A stretch of DNA of 64,000 bases from a bacterium (GCA_021815445.1 JAKAGM010000001.1:723710-787709); one strand, 5' to 3'. Numbered from the stretch's first letter, positions 181 to 11,998 are shown. Program-made: numbers and translations. Notes: a model not told the origin generated them from the sequence alone.

Positions 181-1395
181 ATGAAATTTCGTTATGTCGC
201 TTCCACTCCGGCCGGGCTGATAACCAGGGGCGTTATGGAGGCGCACGACAAAGATGATGTGGGCCGCCAGCTGACTGAGCAAGGGCTTTTGATCATGTCG
301 GCGCATGCCAATAGCGGCCCCCTGCGCGTTGGACACGCGTCACTCAGCCTCCAGCGCATCTCGACGCTTGATAAGGTCCTCTTGGCGCGCCATCTTTCAT
401 TAATGATAAAATCCGGGCTTCCCATCATTGAAAGCTTGCAAATTATTGTTGACCAATCATCGCACGCCGCTTTAAAAAAAATTGTCCTCGCTGTCATTGA
501 GAATGTTCGAAACGGCAACAGCCTCGCGGACAGTTTGGCGCGCCATCCTAAAGTGTTTGGCGGGCTTTTTATTAACATGGTCAAAATCGGCGAAGCATCC
601 GGCACGCTGGAGAAAAATCTTGAATACCTCGCCCAGCAGCTCGAAAAAGATTACGAGCTCAGGCAGAAAATCCGTTCGGCAATGCTGTACCCGCTCATTA
701 TCTTAATCGCGACGGTACTGCTCGGCAGCGGGCTGTCGGTATTCGTCCTCCCTAAGCTTGTTAAACTTTTTGAAGGGCTCCACATCGCCCTCCCCCTGAG
801 TACTAAAATTTTTCTTGCGGTAGCCGCGTTTCTTTCCCATTGGGGATTATTGATTTTCGGAGCTGTCGTAGTTTTTCTGATGCTTGTACCTGTCATCAGG
901 CGGATCCATGCGATAAAACTTTTCCTCAACCGCGCGGCATTGGCAATCCCCTTGATGAAAAATATCGTACTGCACATCATGATTACCAGATTCTGCCGCA
1001 CATTGAGCGTGTTGCTTGCGAGCGGGCTTCCCATCATTGAAGGACTCGCCATCACGAAAGATACGCTCGACAATCTGGTATATGAACGAGAAATCACTTA
1101 CGTTATCAGCCAGGTAGAAAAGGGCAAACCTCTGGGGGAGACACTGGCTGGGCGTGAAAAGTATTTCCCGAAGATAGTATCGCGGATGATGAGTGTCGGC
1201 GAAAAGACGGGTCGACTCGATGAAACACTGTCGTATCTTTCTACATTTTACGACTCTGAGGTCGATGCTGCGACGAAGAATCTTGCCACAGTTATTGAGC
1301 CGATCCTATTGGTCATTATCGGCCTCGTCGTAGGTGGATTAGGCATAGCTATTATTACGCCTATCTACCAGCTCTCTGGTTCGCTCGGACGTTAA
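181..1395 (+). CDS. pilC: type IV pilus assembly inner-membrane platform protein PilC/GspF (two T2SSF repeats)
   Basis: 404 aa; duplicated GLPIIESLQII / GLPIIEGLAI motifs, MVKIGEASGTLE and VGEKTGRLDETL signatures typical of T2SS F domain; 3 TM segments. Confidence 0.85.
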   Translation: MKFRYVASTPAGLITRGVMEAHDKDDVGRQLTEQGLLIMSAHANSGPLRVGHASLSLQRISTLDKVLLARHLSLMIKSGLPIIESLQIIVDQSSHAALKKIVLAVIENVRNGNSLADSLARHPKVFGGLFINMVKIGEASGTLEKNLEYLAQQLEKDYELRQKIRSAMLYPLIILIATVLLGSGLSVFVLPKLVKLFEGLHIALPLSTKIFLAVAAFLSHWGLLIFGAVVVFLMLVPVIRRIHAIKLFLNRAALAIPLMKNIVLHIMITRFCRTLSVLLASGLPIIEGLAITKDTLDNLVYEREITYVISQVEKGKPLGETLAGREKYFPKIVSRMMSVGEKTGRLDETLSYLSTFYDSEVDAATKNLATVIEPILLVIIGLVVGGLGIAIITPIYQLSGSLGR

Positions 1396-1401
1396 CGCCT
1401 A

Positions 1402-1857
1402 TTGAATACCCACATGCGTCATCACTCCGGATTTACCCTGTTCGAAACCCTGCTGGTCATCGCGCTGATAGGGCTTCTTGCGACGCTTGCTATCCCGTTC
1501 TACCAGTCGTTCCAGACACAAGCCCAGCTCGACAGTGCCATTGCGGAGCTTAAACAGGCGCTGAGGACGGCACAGCTTGAGACCATGCTCGGAAAGAGTA
1601 ATGTGCCCCACGGAGTGCATATTGACGCACAGCATTTCATCGCCTACCAAGGAACGTCATTCAGCCCGAGTGATCCAAACAACTTCTCGACAACGCTGGC
1701 GCCGTCACTCCACATTACGACAAGTTTCGGCGCTGATATTACTTTTTCCGGACGCCAGGGGACCCCGTCGCAAACCGGCACAATTTCCATTGCCTCATCA
1801 ACAATTTCTCACACACTCTCCATCAATGCGCTTGGCACCACTGGTCAGACAAATTAA
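1402..1857 (+). CDS. prepilin-type N-terminal cleavage/methylation domain pseudopilin (GspH/FimT-like)
   Basis: N-terminus MNTHMRHHSG|FTLFETLLVIALIGLLATLAI matches class III signal peptide (G-F-T-L-x-E); alternative start at ATG 1414. Confidence 0.7.
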   Translation: MNTHMRHHSGFTLFETLLVIALIGLLATLAIPFYQSFQTQAQLDSAIAELKQALRTAQLETMLGKSNVPHGVHIDAQHFIAYQGTSFSPSDPNNFSTTLAPSLHITTSFGADITFSGRQGTPSQTGTISIASSTISHTLSINALGTTGQTN

Positions 1858-6323: not shown

Positions 6324-7475
6324 TTATGCCAACCGGGCTTCCGCAAGCCGCGTACCGATGACTGTGCGTTCAAGCTTTTCAAATGCAACGGGAATTGAGC
6401 GCGTCCGTAAACCGCAGTCAGGGGTCGGAAAAATCAGTCTGTGATCGCCCATTACCTTCGTGGCGTACAGTATCCTATCGCGAACAAGTTCGGGAGACTC
6501 AAGGAAATCGGTATGGATATCCGTCACCCCGAGCCCGATGCCGCCGGGAATGTGATACTTTTTGAATAATTTCAGCACTTCATAGCCCGGCCTGTCGCCC
6601 TCTTTTATCCCCGGTTTCCTGCTGTCACGATTGGCAAATTCCAGCGCGTACTGGCTGCAGTTGCGCAGTTGAGTAATATGGGGAAAGAGTTTTGAATAGT
6701 CGCTGAAACATATGTGGACGCTGAACATGCATCGAATTCCTTCAGTGGAAGCATTAAATGATTCGACAAAGAGAGGTACTTCTTCGGGATGTGACGTGAC
6801 TGCGGGCTCGTCAATCTGAATCCAGGTGGCGCCCGCAGCAACAAGCGCTTGGATATTGGGCCGAACGACCTGGGTGGCAATATCATGGATGAACCGCTTC
6901 CGCGCCTTTTGACGCGCAACCCGGCCGGCAGAAGTTCCGATAGCGAATGATCGCTTGGTATAATGCTCGTCGTATGACCAGTCTGCGATGGTATAAGCGC
7001 CCGTAATAGGAACTTTGAGTGGCCGATGGGTCATGACTGAAATTTGTTGAAATTCCTTGAGGTGATACGGCGTGAGAAAGCGGGGACGGACTTTGCATGC
7101 CGCCTTCTTGTAGTATTTGTTATCGAATGATCTCACGTGGCCGTAAAAATTGAAACCACCCGCTCCGCTCACCGCCTGGTGGTACATCTCCGTGCGCTGC
7201 TGCTCGCCGTCATAGACGATATCAATGCCGGCTTTTTCAATAAGCCGCAACCCGTACAAGGAGGATATCCTGTAAATCTCGTGAAGGTCTGCGGGGGTTC
7301 TTTTCTTTTTGGTCAAGAGCTCGATGAGATGTTCGGTATCTATACCGAGACGCTTGCCCCACTGTTTCGCGTCTTCAATATCTTTTTTAGGTATGGGCAA
7401 CCCTCTCCCCGCTTTTACGCGCCATTCAGGTTTCGCAAGACTGCCTATTTCGTGAGTAAGAAATGTTCGTATCAT
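6324..7475 (-). CDS. metE: cobalamin-independent methionine synthase, catalytic (C-terminal-type) domain protein
   Basis: 383 aa; WIQIDEPA, HICFSDY (cf. HTHMCY), GVTDIHTD, TPDCGLRTR motifs match MetE C-terminal Zn/homocysteine-binding barrel. Confidence 0.8.
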   Translation of the reverse strand: MIRTFLTHEIGSLAKPEWRVKAGRGLPIPKKDIEDAKQWGKRLGIDTEHLIELLTKKKRTPADLHEIYRISSLYGLRLIEKAGIDIVYDGEQQRTEMYHQAVSGAGGFNFYGHVRSFDNKYYKKAACKVRPRFLTPYHLKEFQQISVMTHRPLKVPITGAYTIADWSYDEHYTKRSFAIGTSAGRVARQKARKRFIHDIATQVVRPNIQALVAAGATWIQIDEPAVTSHPEEVPLFVESFNASTEGIRCMFSVHICFSDYSKLFPHITQLRNCSQYALEFANRDSRKPGIKEGDRPGYEVLKLFKKYHIPGGIGLGVTDIHTDFLESPELVRDRILYATKVMGDHRLIFPTPDCGLRTRSIPVAFEKLERTVIGTRLAEARLA

Positions 7476-7482
7476 ATGAGGG

Positions 7483-8436
7483 TTATGAGGTTAGAGATTG
7501 AATCGCCCTACGCAGATGGAGAAGTTTTTGTTCGGCAATCTTTACCGGTACAAATTGCAGATCGACTGTTGAGGTAGCTCTCACTTCTCGCGGAGCAAGT
7601 GTCGTATTAACGTCCCGTAAAAATTTTGCAAGAGTTTTCGCGTCCTCTACCAGAGACGTACGGCTATCAAGGCACCCTGCAATAAGAGCTAGTTTTCCTT
7701 TGAATGACGGCAGTGCATGCATGTCAGTGTTGAAGAAATCTACGCCCACCGCATCGAGAGGAAGCTTAAGCAAGGTTGCAGCAACGGTCTTTGAGCATGT
7801 AAATGCCACATAGTAACCCAGAGCAGCGTGAGTAGCTTCTATCAAATGATTCGTAGTGTCTGTAACCAGCCGAAGCTCTCCTGGAGTCGCGCCGAGATAT
7901 CCGAGATACGGATCATACAGCTGGAATGAACTGTATCCCGCTTTCTTGAGGTGTATAATGAGATGCGCCAGTGAATCAGCGAACGAGAAAGCAAGTTTGC
8001 GAACTGAGGAATAGTGCCTGTCATCAGCGACCCGCGCAAAGAAAAACGGTGAAGGAAGTGTTGCTTTCCACTCACCCTTCTTATGCATGCCGAGGAAATA
8101 CTCCGATACGTGTTTGCCTGCATAGCGGACTGCGCCGGTAATCTTTGGCTGGCGGAAAAAAGTGTTGGTATCTGCAAAACGAGTTAATGTAACGGGCTGG
8201 ATGCCCGAACAGATTTCAGCAAAAGGCCTGAAGATATCCTGCCAGTTGAGCATGCCATCGGAGAGTGGCGTGATGCCGAGCTTCTTTTGCAACGAGAGGA
8301 CCTCGTCCTGCTGCGCATGGCGTATTTGAACGAGCCGGCTCGCAGTAATTCTTTTTCTGTCGAAATCCCGTGTAGCAGCGACGAGCGCTTCTGAGCGAGG
8401 AAAAGTTCCCGTAAGTTCAATAGAATAGTGTTGCAT
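7483..8436 (-). CDS. MetE N-terminal-domain-like (UROD/MetE barrel) protein; likely partner of split methionine synthase
   Basis: 317 aa; ELTGTFPRSE N-terminus resembles MetE N-domain T(L/I)G(F/S)FP motif; directly upstream of and co-directional with metE catalytic gene. Confidence 0.5.
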   Translation of the reverse strand: MQHYSIELTGTFPRSEALVAATRDFDRKRITASRLVQIRHAQQDEVLSLQKKLGITPLSDGMLNWQDIFRPFAEICSGIQPVTLTRFADTNTFFRQPKITGAVRYAGKHVSEYFLGMHKKGEWKATLPSPFFFARVADDRHYSSVRKLAFSFADSLAHLIIHLKKAGYSSFQLYDPYLGYLGATPGELRLVTDTTNHLIEATHAALGYYVAFTCSKTVAATLLKLPLDAVGVDFFNTDMHALPSFKGKLALIAGCLDSRTSLVEDAKTLAKFLRDVNTTLAPREVRATSTVDLQFVPVKIAEQKLLHLRRAIQSLTS

Positions 8437-8458: not shown

Positions 8459-9430
8459 TTAAAGGAGTTCGGAGAGCTTCATAAGAAGCTCTTTTGAAAG
8501 TTCAAAATTATATTTCATGACATGTTCGACATTGAGCCCAAGCGGGACCCGCAAGCTGTTGGTTCTGCAATATGAAAGTATATCAGATAAAATACCAATG
8601 CAAATATCCAACGATCGCCAGCCCATGCCGATCCATCCTTCGACCAGCCTGGCCTCCACGTCGGGAGGAATAGATACCCCAAGCCAGCGAAGAAATTGTA
8701 TGTCTTTCACCGTCGAAGCCGGGGCGAAACTTATAAAGATTCTTTTTGGCTCCACATTACTCTTAATACAAAGAGCGTCATAGTCTGTGAGAAGTTTTTT
8801 CATCGCCTCAGCTTCGTAGATGATTTGGCTGGTAAAAAAACTCGTTCCCGACCTGCCTTTGTTAATGAGCCGCAACGGTTCATCGGCTTCAGGATTCTGG
8901 TGCCGCCGGGTCGCAATGGTTATTCCCCCGACAAGCATCTGCTCTTCTGCCTGTTTTCCCTCATTAAAATGATCGCGAACCCATTCGGTCGCCTGACGGA
9001 CTGTCGGCCCCGGATAATGAATTGTATTCGACTCTCCACCGACAAAAACTACATTTGAGACGTTATATGTTTGATGGGTTTCCTCCATCCATGCGGAGAG
9101 CTGTTCGACGGGGTCATGTACGACGACGTGATTGATGATGACAGGCACATCTGGCCTGTGTCTCAGCAGGACCTGTCCGAATTCACGCGGGTCGCCTTTA
9201 GGCACCGTCCGTGCGCCTTTCTCTTTCGTCTGGCCCATTTCTCCGTGAATCTCGGGAATATTGAAGGCATCAATGTGAACATTCTCAAGGAGCTTATCAA
9301 TGGCGTGTAAAAACGGGCTGAGAGCTTTGTCGATTTCACTCCGGGGAGGCGGGAGAAGTTCATAGAGAACCGGTATACGGGCAGACCCTGCCGATGACGG
9401 ACTGAATTTCTTATGAAGATTTTTCATCAC
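8459..9430 (-). CDS. metF: methylenetetrahydrofolate reductase-like protein (MetF family)
   Basis: 323 aa; IPVLYELLPPP (cf. SFEFFPP), TSQIIYEAEAMKKLL (cf. ITQFFFDVESYLRF); GTG/ATG start at 9430/9427; first gene downstream of S-box leader. Confidence 0.55.
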   Translation of the reverse strand: MMKNLHKKFSPSSAGSARIPVLYELLPPPRSEIDKALSPFLHAIDKLLENVHIDAFNIPEIHGEMGQTKEKGARTVPKGDPREFGQVLLRHRPDVPVIINHVVVHDPVEQLSAWMEETHQTYNVSNVVFVGGESNTIHYPGPTVRQATEWVRDHFNEGKQAEEQMLVGGITIATRRHQNPEADEPLRLINKGRSGTSFFTSQIIYEAEAMKKLLTDYDALCIKSNVEPKRIFISFAPASTVKDIQFLRWLGVSIPPDVEARLVEGWIGMGWRSLDICIGILSDILSYCRTNSLRVPLGLNVEHVMKYNFELSKELLMKLSELL

Positions 9431-9436
9431 GATACT

Positions 9437-9640
9437 AAAAATTCTTATCTGTATGGAGATAAGAAGCGTTTATCGCGCTTTCTGCCGGGAACCGGCAGAC
9501 ATATCTTCCCCATACGACCTGCTATGGGCGAGAAGCACCCGTGCGTGAGTGGGTTGCTGGATGGGTATTGGCGGGCTCGATCCCGCCTCCAAAAAAATAT
9601 CTTTGGAGTTCCCATCACTCTTGATAATCAGGTATATAAA
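9437..9640 (-). promoter_or_regulatory. SAM-I (S-box) riboswitch candidate with intrinsic terminator, 5' leader of metF-metE operon
   Basis: Minus-strand RNA contains UUAUCAAGAG, P2 GAUGGG...CCCAUC, P3 GGCGGG-aucgag-CCCGCC, AGCAACC, GGGUGC, P4 CCCAUA..UAUGGG, GGAAGAUAUG, then terminator UUCUUAUC-uccauaca-GAUAAGAA-UUUUU (9466-9437) ending 6 nt before metF start. Confidence 0.5.
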
Positions 9641-9726
9641 CTATACAGATATAAAAGACGTCGGTCAAGACTTATGCCGACGCATGGCCCACGTTCTATG
9701 CCGAATAGACGTTCTGATGTTTTCCG

Positions 9727-10386
9727 TTACCCCTCCCATTCGCCTTGCGCCGGCGGATTTCCCTGTGCGGACTCTTCGCCCCGTTCGTTGACCGTTCTCT
9801 CCCCGATCCACTTGTTATCTTCACCAAAATATTTTGTTGTCCGAGAAATTGAACCTTCGGGAGACTTTTGGGAGTTACTTCCCTGAGCGGTGATTGTGGT
9901 TGTTACGGTCTCAATGTATCCTTTTCCGGGTACTTCTTTCCTATCTGTTTCCTGGCGCCATGCATGCCCTGTTTCAAGTATCTTTCCTTCAACGACCGAG
10001 GGCTCCGTGGACTCGGGTGTCGCGTAAGATCTTTTTTCTGTCCACGTACTCGGGCCTTTGAGATGCCCTGGGAGCATTTGACCCTCAACTCCGACTATGC
10101 GACCGCCTTTACCCGGCTTATCATATGTGAAAAACTGATGCCTATCACTCACCAGGCTTCGTTCCTGAGATCCTGCGCTTGCTGCCAAATGAGACTCGCG
10201 AAGATAAATAACCTGACCGTTTGCATCTATAATCCCCTGCTGCTCTGTTTGACGGAGTTCATCGGCGGATACTTTTCCTTCGTGGAATGCTTTTCCGCCT
10301 TCGGGAACTTCGGGCTTATCTCGGATAACAAATGGTTTTGTTTCAACGCTTTCTGGATTGAAACCGAGCGTGTCTGGACTAGGCAT
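9727..10386 (-). CDS. hypothetical protein, low-complexity/likely disordered (G,E,K,T-rich)
   Basis: 219-aa ORF with no recognisable motif; co-directional with and 20 nt downstream of 530-aa membrane protein gene. Confidence 0.4.
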   Translation of the reverse strand: MPSPDTLGFNPESVETKPFVIRDKPEVPEGGKAFHEGKVSADELRQTEQQGIIDANGQVIYLRESHLAASAGSQERSLVSDRHQFFTYDKPGKGGRIVGVEGQMLPGHLKGPSTWTEKRSYATPESTEPSVVEGKILETGHAWRQETDRKEVPGKGYIETVTTTITAQGSNSQKSPEGSISRTTKYFGEDNKWIGERTVNERGEESAQGNPPAQGEWEG

Positions 10387-10405: not shown

Positions 10406-11998
10406 TTAGTAGATCTCTTCTTTCTTTTCCTTTTGAAAAGATACCCAATCCTCCACCACTTCAATAAAAATCTTGAATGGCGCCTCGATAATAAAATCCA
10501 GAACGAAGAGAAAAAGATTGACCTTCGGTGTTTTATTTGAAACCCACTGTCCGACACGGAGGATAGGTATTGAGAAAAAATCAAGAATGATGGTCATCAG
10601 ATTGTCCTTTTCATCTACAATGACCAGCTCTTTGATCTCATATCTCAGCTTAACGCCGAAGAAACTGATGATAGTGAAGAAGAACAGAAACAGCGCCGCG
10701 CTGACGACATTGAATTTCAGCAAGATAAGGAATGAAATGATAAGGCCGAATGAAATGATAAAAGCCACGGCGAAAAACGAATTGAAAAGATACTCCGCGA
10801 ATTTGCTCCGTTTGAATACTTTGCGCTTTTTATACAGGAAACCCGCATAAGGTTCCTGGGAAACTATCTTTTTGAGAAACTCGACAATTTTATCAGTATT
10901 CTTCTTTGACGGAATGCGAATCGAAACTGCTATCACGAACATGAGGAACGGGTGGAACAGCGTGTTGATGAGCAGCGGCGTAAAATGCGTTGTGTGAATA
11001 ATATACCTGTCGTACGGATACTCGATAATGAGGGCGAGCATCATCTTGGTGATAAAGACGTAGATGATTGTCCTGATAAAACTGCGGCGTAATTTTGTAT
11101 GGGCTTTTTTATACCGGGATGCACAGGCTGCGCGCACGCGGTCTTCGAATTCCTGCGGATTGCTCGTGAGCTCCGGGAACCGGTGGGGATTTTCTTCAAC
11201 GATATCCCTCAATATAATGAAAAGGATGGAGAATCTTTTCATGAATCTCTGGAGACGGTCGCCGTACGGATGGAGAATATGGCTGTCGACTTGCTTTTTG
11301 AGGTAAACCAGGTCCTTTTTTACGCGCTCGACGGCTTCAGGCGAGTTCTCAAGCCAACCCGGAACGAAAAAATTAAAAAGATGGTAGCGGAGAATGCTGA
11401 CGTCCGACTTGATCAGCACGCGATGGATAGCGATATACACCTGCAGATCCCGCTCTTCGGGATCGGAAATATGTTCAGCCAGGTCTACGTCCTGCCTGAT
11501 GACTGAGTACATGCACTCTACGAGTGCATCTTCCTGAATCGGCGCGACAAGATGGTGCTCAACCTCGGACGAGAGCAATGAAAGGATCCAATTGCTCATC
11601 TGCCGGCGTTCTTTCGTCAGGCGATTCGGCGCCACGGCATCGAGGAGCACAATATATTTATCGAGAATAAGATCGACTTCTCCGATTACCCGTTCCGGGA
11701 TTGCATTATTCGGAAGATAACGGGCCCTGATCAGTTCGGTCAAAAGCAAACGTCCGAGATTCTCGCGTTTCTCCTCTGTATACAGGCGGCGCTTGATCAT
11801 GCGCTCTATGGCATTTTTGCGCAGAAGATGCTCGTCTTTGTAATCTATCGCATTGCGAATTTTTTCATATATAAACGCAACACGGCTAATGGTTACATGA
11901 ACCTTTATTTTAGGCTCGTCTTTGCCGTAGAGATCCTGCGGACGCTTCGTGTCGTACGCTGCAAGCAGCTTTTTAATGGGTTGTGTGAGCGTATTCAT
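10406..11998 (-). CDS. hypothetical membrane protein: ~290-aa N-terminal soluble domain plus 4-6 C-terminal TM helices
   Basis: 530-aa ORF; C-terminal half strongly hydrophobic (FAVAFIISFGLIISFLILL..., FLFFFTIISFFGV...); no family recognised by eye. Confidence 0.5.
   Translation of the reverse strand: MNTLTQPIKKLLAAYDTKRPQDLYGKDEPKIKVHVTISRVAFIYEKIRNAIDYKDEHLLRKNAIERMIKRRLYTEEKRENLGRLLLTELIRARYLPNNAIPERVIGEVDLILDKYIVLLDAVAPNRLTKERRQMSNWILSLLSSEVEHHLVAPIQEDALVECMYSVIRQDVDLAEHISDPEERDLQVYIAIHRVLIKSDVSILRYHLFNFFVPGWLENSPEAVERVKKDLVYLKKQVDSHILHPYGDRLQRFMKRFSILFIILRDIVEENPHRFPELTSNPQEFEDRVRAACASRYKKAHTKLRRSFIRTIIYVFITKMMLALIIEYPYDRYIIHTTHFTPLLINTLFHPFLMFVIAVSIRIPSKKNTDKIVEFLKKIVSQEPYAGFLYKKRKVFKRSKFAEYLFNSFFAVAFIISFGLIISFLILLKFNVVSAALFLFFFTIISFFGVKLRYEIKELVIVDEKDNLMTIILDFFSIPILRVGQWVSNKTPKVNLFLFVLDFIIEAPFKIFIEVVEDWVSFQKEKKEEIY

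Follow-up and report, generated by a model that had tools for sequence, protein, structure and literature searches.

The minus-strand leader at positions 9633-9431 of a 64,000-nucleotide (nt) stretch of bacterial DNA (GCA_021815445.1 JAKAGM010000001.1:723710-787709; the whole stretch is called the window here, and positions are counted from its first letter) is with high probability an S-adenosylmethionine (SAM)-responsive OFF riboswitch of the SAM-I/SAM-IV clan. It is predicted to control, by transcription termination, an operon coding for a methylenetetrahydrofolate reductase (MTHFR)-like protein and a split MetE. Structurally, the leader is a relative of SAM-I without a kink-turn (K-turn), which lies outside all three families of the clan and is missed by the Rfam models. 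It was shown by computation that the aptamer keeps the junction of the paired regions P1 to P4, the ligand-contact nucleotides and the pseudoknot PK-1, and that its periphery is rebuilt, with a G-free junction, a rewritten PK-1, a short joining segment J3/4 and a P5-like hairpin. That a riboswitch leader of the SAM clan, with a terminator, precedes this operon had been proposed earlier by a model that was given the DNA alone (the sequence-only reading), and genomic context, core nucleotides and helices agree with this proposal.

Structure of the aptamer

The minus-strand intergenic region between an open reading frame (ORF) of 219 amino acids (aa), which ends at 9727, and one of 323 aa, which starts at 9430 or 9427, was found to hold every string listed in the sequence-only reading. 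The S-box motifs named there are all present on the minus strand at 9627-9437, apart from small errors. The promoter and the parts of the aptamer are given below from 5' to 3', where L004 is the contig with the nearest relative of the leader and T. tengcongensis SAM-I is the crystallised representative.

9640-9668, minus strand: promoter of the sigma-70 type, TTGACC-17 nt-TATAGT, 10 of 12 matches; transcription presumably starts near 9633
9627-9618, minus strand: 5' start of the aptamer, UUAUCAAGAG
9623-9626, minus strand: P1 5' strand UAUC, 4 base pairs (bp), followed by a U.U mismatch
9619-9622, minus strand: J1/2 AAGA, including the SAM-pocket residues G11 and A12; identical to T. tengcongensis SAM-I
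9611-9618, minus strand: P2a 5' strand G(U)GAUGGG, partner CCCAUCC at 9559-9565; paired in 100% of the cells, with double-sided changes in 3 pairs
9587-9608, minus strand: extra A/U-rich hairpin of 22 nt, CUCCAAA-GAUAUUUU-UUUGGAG, in the 5' junction of P2; predicted in the minimum free energy (MFE) fold
9571-9586, minus strand: P2b hairpin GCGGG-AUCGAG-CCCGC, with the loop bases CGAG (9576-9579) as PK-1 5' strand
9566-9570, minus strand: P2 3' junction CAAUA, G-free, where the K-turn strand GAUGA(C/A) would sit
9559-9565, minus strand: P2a 3' strand CCCAUCC, from the structural alignment
9534-9558, minus strand: P3 AGCA-A-CCC / GGG-UGCU with loop ACUCACGCAC; pocket residues C44-C47 and U57-C59
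9541-9545, minus strand: CGCAC in the P3 loop, candidate 5' strand of a second pseudoknot, PK-2
9529-9533, minus strand: J3/4 UCUCG, shortened to 5 nt versus 8; its CUCG (9529-9532), directly 5' of P4, is the PK-1 3' strand
9509-9528, minus strand: P4 hairpin CCCAUA-GCAGGUCG-UAUGGG with an 8-nt loop, -8.1 kcal/mol; paired in 100% of the cells, with double-sided changes in 5 pairs
9502-9508, minus strand: J4/1 GAA and P1 3' strand GAUA, including A87
9481-9499, minus strand: P5-like hairpin UCUGCCGG-UUC-CCGGCAGA, 8 bp, -13.9 kcal/mol; aligns to SAM-IV P5, 2 pairs changed on both sides versus L004
9474-9478, minus strand: tail GCGCG after an AA linker, candidate PK-2 3' strand

In L004, a promoter TTGACT-17-TATACT is present at the aligned position. 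The MFE fold of the 216-nt window leader has a z-score of -4.58, and none of 200 shuffles folded as well. This fold contains a P2 three-way junction, P3, P4, a strong extra hairpin at 9499-9481 and a terminator hairpin with U5 (9465-9437).

Some of the helices had to be renamed or redrawn. The hairpin GGCGGG-AUCGAG-CCCGCC, which had been taken for P3, is really P2b, the distal half of P2, and the true P3 is formed by AGCAACCC and GGGUGCU, with AGCAACC(C) at 9558-9551 and GGGUGC(U) at 9540-9534. The P2 strands GAUGGG (9616-9611) and CCCAUC (9565-9560) were correctly recognised, but they enclose two hairpins (9608-9587 and 9586-9571) and not one, and the P4 loop is one nucleotide longer than the 7 nt stated. 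The string GGAAGAUAUG, named as 3' strand of P1, is present, but its pairing is limited to four Watson-Crick pairs: from the P1 3' side GAAGAUAUG, GAUA alone (9505-9502) pairs with UAUC (9626-9623). P4 is homologous to the P4 of the canonical relatives. The spacer between P1 and the P5-like hairpin is 2 nt long in the window and 1 nt in L004, where the sequence of the hairpin differs; P5 and the tail were not found in the leaders of four canonical relatives, but only in the two leaders without a K-turn.

The junction between P2a and P2b consists of the strands AA / CAAUA in the window and GAAUC / UCACCA in L004, while the canonical relatives have GAUGA, GAUGAC or AACGAC as the 3' strand. Because the 3' strand contains no G in either the window or L004, the tandem G.A pairs that make up a K-turn together with a 3-nt bulge are impossible, and a K-turn is absent. 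For the same reason, a reading of the P2 three-way junction as a K-turn or "k-junction" was rejected. The hairpin at 9608-9587, by which the bend in P2 becomes a three-way junction, is present in the window leader only. It represents a clean indel of about 20 nt compared to L004 and is unique in the 64 kb. With this single copy, a dispersed repeat or mobile insertion was ruled out.

PK-1 is formed, as judged by complementarity, between CGAG (9579-9576) and CUCG (9532-9529), and both of these strands lie where they do in canonical SAM-I. Of the alignment to the consensus pseudoknot and K-turn positions, which the sequence-only reading had made decisive, the pseudoknot part thus held and the K-turn part failed. 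In the relatives, PK-1 is CUGG:CCAG. Two of its four pairs are changed on both sides in the window, from U-A to G-C and from G-C to A-U, and the helix is 92.9% paired in the seven-sequence structural alignment.

Related leaders and the ligand pocket

The contigs carrying the closest homologs of the first gene of the operon (54-58% identity) were compared, all of which have the same three-gene operon. The best Rfam matches of these leaders, and of the leader of a 46% homolog, are the following; the gathering score for SAM-I is 44.4 bits.

L002 / L003 ("Patescibacteria group bacterium" metagenome-assembled genome, MAG): SAM-I, 51.6 bits
L008: SAM-I, 50.6 bits
L005: SAM-I, 50.5 bits
L006: SAM-I, 38.0 bits
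L004: SAM-I as best clan model, 23.3 bits
L009 (46% homolog), 1368-1443, plus strand: SAM-II/SAM_alpha (RF00521), 58.5 bits, gathering score 36

Three distinct relatives have leaders above the SAM-I cut-off. The scores identify the operon as a recurrent target of SAM riboswitches, with the window at the low end of a graded series. In L009, the class of riboswitch has been replaced before the orthologous gene, with SAM-II/SAM_alpha for the SAM-I type. The canonical SAM-I aptamers (L002 2742-2936, L008 774-954, L005 1264-1445 and L006 1294-1411) carry large peripheral insertions. In L008 and L002, 56-83 nt are inserted inside P3, L005 and L006 have a long P4 arm in common (CCCACACCAAUGC...GCAUUGGUGUGGG), and in L002, L005 and L008 the second pair of P3 is an A.C mismatch (CGACAACC).

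L004, the nearest relative, also shares the upstream synteny of the window. A nhmmer search with its leader gave one match in the 64 kb, at 9631-9437 on the minus strand (E = 1.4e-13), which covers both aptamer and platform; the flanking intergenic DNA of the two loci does not align. A conserved leader between flanks that are not conserved is what purifying selection acting on the fold leaves behind. When the leaders of the four canonical relatives were made into a profile from sequence alone, it gave no match in the window; what ties the window to canonical SAM-I is therefore its structure, its pocket and synteny, and not primary sequence.

For the pair counts, seven aptamers were parsed by hand: the window, L004, L006, L002, L005, L008 and T. 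tengcongensis SAM-I (sequence in PMC5393176). The contiguity of the pieces was checked against the real sequences. The resulting N-padded alignment, A4, was annotated with P1-P4, PK-1, P5 and PK-2; the MAFFT alignments A1-A3 were dropped in its favour because P3, J3/4 and P4 were out of register in them. Standard pairs were found in 94.6% of the cells, a percentage inflated by the fitting of A4 to the structure, compared to 33-48% when the partners were slid by 1-3 columns. The more trustworthy signal is the number of pairs changed on both sides, which was 17, compared to 0-4 in the slid controls. None of 500 shuffles reached any of the observed pair measures. The four-way junction P1-P4 is present, with 88-100% of the cells paired per helix and compensatory changes in P2a, P3 and P4.

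In SAM-I, 13 positions lie within 5 Å of SAM, namely 6-8, 11-12, 44-47, 57-59 and 87 (PMC6890682). The corresponding nucleotides, AUC GA CAAC UGC A, are identical at 13 of 13 positions in the window, L004 and T. tengcongensis SAM-I. In some other riboswitch classes, peripheral remodelling accompanies changes in specificity, and by this general analogy the SAM-clan fold of the window might bind a changed ligand, for example S-adenosylhomocysteine or another adenosyl or methionine derivative. Such a change is very improbable here, given the identical pocket, the regulated genes, which make methionine and form the classic SAM-repressed regulon, and the orthologous operons, which use canonical SAM-I or SAM-II.

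Place within the SAM clan

At the Rfam gathering thresholds, only four tRNAs and no SAM family were identified in the whole 64 kb. With permissive filters, the best clan model was SAM-IV (RF00634), with 26.2 bits against a gathering score of 38 (E = 0.013, 9470-9626, minus strand), a sub-threshold score by which the clan is still recognised. SAM-I (RF00162) reached 16.9 bits against 44.4 (E = 0.16) in a 135-nt search of the aptamer alone (9498-9632), so that the assignment to SAM-I made in the sequence-only reading was not upheld by this model. The core strings UAUCAAGAG, CAGCAACC, GGUGC and GAAGAUA align to RF00162, but the score is reduced by an insertion of 49 nt where the model expects the K-turn and P2b. 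SAM-I/IV (RF01725) is absent at its gathering threshold; its score is at most 26.2 bits, since it is hidden by clan competition.

Both gathering scores having failed, with a SAM-I E-value that is weak even for so short a search, an ordinary intergenic region that resembles S-box motifs by chance had to be considered. This explanation has almost no probability left. It is contradicted by the match to L004, the pair counts and the complete pocket, and for practical purposes it is refuted by the orthologous leaders. A low RF00162 score with motifs explained by chance had been named as the outcome that would speak against a riboswitch; the low score was found, but chance does not explain the motifs.

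The families of the clan differ in their peripheral elements. SAM-I is characterised by the K-turn, which is its defining element, together with PK-1 and P4 (PMC6890682). In SAM-IV, for which a cryo-electron microscopy structure has been described, P2a and P2b are parted by a four-nucleotide bend that is not a K-turn, PK-1 follows directly after P3, P4 is missing, and a P5 hairpin is followed by the PK-2 strand, which pairs with the P3 loop beside the P3 3' strand (PMC6890682). In SAM-I/IV (structure 4L81, sequence in PMC5393176), P2 is not split, PK-1 is missing, and both P4 and PK-2 occur (PMC6890682).

With SAM-I, the window leader shares the four-way junction P1-P4, J1/2 AAGAG, P3 GCAACC / GGUGC with a bulged A, J4/1-P1 GAAGAUA, all 13 pocket nucleotides, and a PK-1 that joins the last bases of the P2b loop to those directly preceding P4. 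Also common to both are the terminator/antiterminator platform, with a terminator 5' arm that copies the P1 5' strand, and the methionine-biosynthesis regulon, and the orthologous operons of relatives carry canonical SAM-I. The leader differs from SAM-I in the absence of the K-turn, the longer P2a (7 bp) and P2b (5 bp), the extra P2 hairpin (window only), PK-1 CGAG:CUCG in place of CUGG:CCAG, a J3/4 of 5 nt and not 8, the 4-bp P1 and the hairpin added after P1.

The likeness to SAM-IV consists of the non-K-turn bend between P2a and P2b, the PK-1 strand almost directly after P3, the 4-bp P1 (5 bp in L004), the P5 hairpin 2 nt after P1, the tail AAGCGCG compared to the consensus CAAGcGcgg, and the possible PK-2. 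The higher score of the SAM-IV model compared to SAM-I is explained by the bend, the connection from P3 to PK-1, the short P1 and P5. In contrast to SAM-IV, the window has a P4 (9528-9509) in the junction, which is absent from that family by definition, and a transcription terminator as platform. With SAM-I/IV, the leader has in common a P4 inside the junction, the lack of a K-turn, and a hairpin and tail 3' of P1, where the tail may pair with the P3 loop. It differs in its split P2 and in a P2b loop complementary to J3/4 with compensatory changes, whereas P2 of SAM-I/IV is unsplit and PK-1 is missing. The presence of P4 ruled out a filing as SAM-IV, and the split P2 together with PK-1 ruled out SAM-I/IV. 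As each of the three families fails in at least one defining feature, the element was placed in the clan and in none of the three.

The K-turn of SAM-I helps PK-1 to form. For the same riboswitch, it is conceivable, though rather doubtful, that the loss of the K-turn is offset by PK-2, in which GCGCG (9478-9474) would pair with CGCAC (9545-9541), as in SAM-IV and SAM-I/IV. The topology fits that of SAM-IV, since the PK-2 strand abuts the P3 3' strand, PK-1 follows P3 nearly directly, and P5 stands 2 nt after P1 and is followed by the tail (PMC6890682). It also agrees with PK-2 that the SAM-IV model outscores SAM-I in the window (26.2 versus 16.9 bits), with P5 and AAGCGCG aligned to its consensus, and that P5 and the tail are confined to the two K-turn-less leaders. 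Every pairwise combination of P4, PK-1 and PK-2 exists in a solved structure (PMC6890682). In L004, CGUGU:ACACG gives 5 of 5 Watson-Crick pairs, which about 5% of loop shuffles reach. In the window, 4 of 5 pairs form at the homologous columns, and two pairs are changed on both sides, from U-A to C-G (n = 2 sequences).

Several observations speak against PK-2. Only two sequences bear on it, the best clan model of L004 is SAM-I, and the window has an A.C mismatch, with a longest contiguous run of 3 bp that 8884 of 20000 shuffles reached. One of the compensatory changes (tail position 3, G/A) is explained equally well by a local hairpin, GCG-AUAAA-CGC in the window (9466-9476, with 9474-9476 as its 5' arm) and ACGA..UCGU in L004. 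Furthermore, P5 and the tail lie within the predicted antiterminator and may belong to the expression platform only. A "joint chance" of 2 in 200000 was disregarded as a probability, because the leaders are homologous and the positions were picked after the data had been seen.

More broadly, and again as a tentative proposal, the leaders of the window and L004 could represent a fourth architecture of the clan, with a SAM-I junction including P4 and PK-1 to which the bend, P5 and PK-2 of SAM-IV were added. It would have been derived from the canonical K-turn SAM-I that is still found before the same operon in sister lineages.

Expression platform, operon and biological meaning

The elements of the expression platform and the genes of the operon are the following.

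9437-9465, minus strand: intrinsic terminator UUCUUAUCU-CCAUAC-AGAUAAGAA (9465-9442) followed by U5 (9441-9437), -8.2 kcal/mol
9507-9514, minus strand: antiterminator 5' strand UAUGGGGA (P4 3' arm and start of J4/1), paired with 9452-9459 in the MFE fold of the nascent transcript
9452-9459, minus strand: antiterminator 3' strand UCUCCAUA (end of the terminator 5' arm and loop)
8459-9430, minus strand: first gene, divergent MTHFR-like protein, 322 aa from AUG 9427 or 323 aa from GUG 9430
7483-8436, minus strand: MetE N-terminal-domain-like protein, 317 aa (PF08267, E = 1.2e-8)
6324-7475, minus strand: MetE catalytic-domain protein, 383 aa (PF01717, E = 2.1e-26)

The terminator 5' arm copies the P1 5' strand (UUAUC), and the terminator arms are the same in L004. 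The U-run ends 6 nt before GUG 9430, as had been stated, and 9 nt before AUG 9427, the start used by the public gene call. When the transcript is cut before the terminator 3' arm, P4 is exchanged in the MFE fold for the helix 9514-9507 : 9459-9452, which encloses P5. In the nascent transcript of L004, the MFE fold has an equivalent, longer antiterminator, UAUGGG..AGAUAAG : CUUAUCU.ACCCGUA, a duplex matched by 20 of 2000 shuffles.

The most likely mechanism is that SAM binding would favour the terminator just upstream of the first possible start codon. With SAM bound, P1, P4 and PK-1 would be locked and UAUGGGGA kept inside P4 and J4/1. By this withholding of the antiterminator strand, the terminator at 9465-9437 could form, and transcription would stop 6 nt before GUG 9430 (OFF). 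At low SAM, UAUGGGGA would pair with UCUCCAUA in the terminator 5' arm and loop, the antiterminator would enclose P5, and the polymerase would read through (ON). Between the U-run and GUG/AUG (UUUUUAGUAUCGUGAUG, 9425-9441, minus strand), no recognisable Shine-Dalgarno sequence was identified, and none is obvious in L004 either. A helix CGCGAUA (9477-9471) : UAUCGUG (9434-9428), which would cover GUG, was seen in one fold, was lost with more 3' context and was not relied on.

Several points weigh against a functional SAM riboswitch. In the window leader, no Rfam family reaches its gathering score, the K-turn is missing, and P1 has only four Watson-Crick pairs. The subtype is known from two sequences only, the window and L004, and A4 is a manual alignment guided by the structure, in which the helices were cut back at their ends to paired columns. 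In the terminator, the stem contains no more than 2 G-C pairs and the U-run is short (U5); the terminator scan, by whose rule at least 3 G-C pairs are needed, did not flag it. The window antiterminator duplex (-10.7 kcal/mol) was matched by 285 of 2000 shuffles and is thus no better than chance, and in a simple model the ON state (-53.3 kcal/mol) is about 11 kcal/mol less stable than the OFF state (-64.1 kcal/mol).

On such grounds, namely the sub-threshold Rfam scores, the lost K-turn, the short P1, the 22-nt insertion in P2 and the weak antiterminator, the leader could also be seen as a decaying SAM-I relic that no longer senses SAM and acts as a constitutive leaky terminator or a structured 5' untranslated region. 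This is quite unlikely. All ligand-contact bases are kept in two lineages between which the orthologous proteins have no more than 57% identity, the substitutions in P2a, P3, P5 and PK-1 are compensatory, and the leader aligns to L004 where the neighbouring intergenic DNA does not. A SAM-responsive riboswitch remains the preferred reading of the leader.

The search for further members of the subtype covered several sequence sets. A scan of genome contigs for the MTHFR-like protein gave no relatives, and a second DNA pattern gave no matches in viral contigs. The pattern GCAACC..GGTGCNTCTCG..GAAGATA had 17 matches in metagenome and genome contigs, which were judged to be due to chance, as they are coding-like or repeated and are devoid of a 5' half of the UUAUCAAGAG type. 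The P0002 contig (L027) is short, and no aptamer was identified in the approximately 118 nt that it has before the called start of the gene. The leaders of the more distant homologs L028-L033 were out of reach, because the gene sits behind other methionine genes. The second assembly of the same organism (L001) is identical over 2967 nt and showed no strain variation.

For the first gene, the sequence-only label "MetF" was right in so far as the protein belongs to an MTHFR-like family; the label itself rests on a match to PF02219 below threshold (E = 1.5e-3, 18.3 bits versus a cut-off of 24). The family is widespread and well populated and is annotated by JGI as 5,10-methylenetetrahydrofolate reductase. 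Among solved structures, its single relative is 3ijd (E = 1e-18), an uncharacterized protein. That entry was reportedly crystallised with 5-methyl-tetrahydrofolate. Most of the homologs (P0002-P0120) have no Pfam assignment, and a few members have precomputed PF02219 matches; named sources are Legionella, Levybacteria, Gammaproteobacteria, Planctomycetota and Patescibacteria. In all the loci compared, the MTHFR-like gene adjoins MetE-type genes. Control by SAM-I or SAM-II speaks for a role of the family as the source of the methyl group in methionine synthesis. For the two split MetE ORFs (6324-8436, minus strand), the best NCBIfam matches are the stand-alone "methionine synthase" equivalogs of about 340 residues, PRK04326 and PRK01207, which rank above TIGR01371, the model of the full-length MetE of about 750 aa. 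In the more distant relatives L028 and L029, a fused MetE stands beside the MTHFR-like gene.

Upstream of the leader, the genes at 9727-10386 (219 aa) and 10406-11998 (530 aa), both on the minus strand, gave no Pfam or NCBIfam family. In a word-seeded search of 5.8 billion clustered proteins, the 219-aa protein had no homolog but itself; L004 contains a 224-aa gene at the syntenic position. As by-catch of the pattern scan, five soil-metagenome contigs (L010 6987-7058, L011 489-566, L012 1982-2054, L016 3087-3159 and L018 317-394) were found to have a conserved segment of about 150 nt in common (…GGUGCCUCUCGCCAAAUUCGCUGG…GGAAGAUAUCUAACAUCAGGUCCAGUCGAAUUGUCUUGA…). This segment probably has nothing to do with riboswitches and would be a conserved gene or a repeated element.

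The organism of the window would appear to be a Patescibacterium, the nearest named ortholog being from a Patescibacteria MAG. The earlier remark that SAM riboswitches are seldom reported in bacteria resembling the candidate phyla radiation (CPR) is fair for the literature: among the 5-6 publications in the searched library that join riboswitches and Patescibacteria/CPR, one covers only synthetic riboswitches as genetic tools, and none of the others is on natural riboswitches, as judged by title and abstract. However, in the relatives, canonical SAM-I is common before this operon.

The function assigned to the leader, SAM feedback control of methionine synthesis, is ordinary. As a false negative of the curated Rfam SAM models, the leader implies that threshold-based riboswitch surveys of small-genome bacteria, probably Patescibacteria/CPR, will underestimate regulation. 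The leaders of a single set of orthologous operons form a graded series, from the K-turn SAM-I (about 51 bits) over a weaker form (38 bits) to the K-turn-less leaders with a rewritten pseudoknot (23 and 17 bits), together with one swap to SAM-II. This series is a rare natural record of the remodelling of a scaffold around a fixed ligand pocket. If PK-2 were true, the element would bridge SAM-I and SAM-IV and would allow the substitution of a K-turn by PK-2 to be tested. If the leaders did form a fourth architecture, they would be a natural evolutionary intermediate on the way from SAM-I to scaffolds of the SAM-IV type, in which the function of the K-turn had passed to a second pseudoknot and, in the window leader, to a three-way junction.

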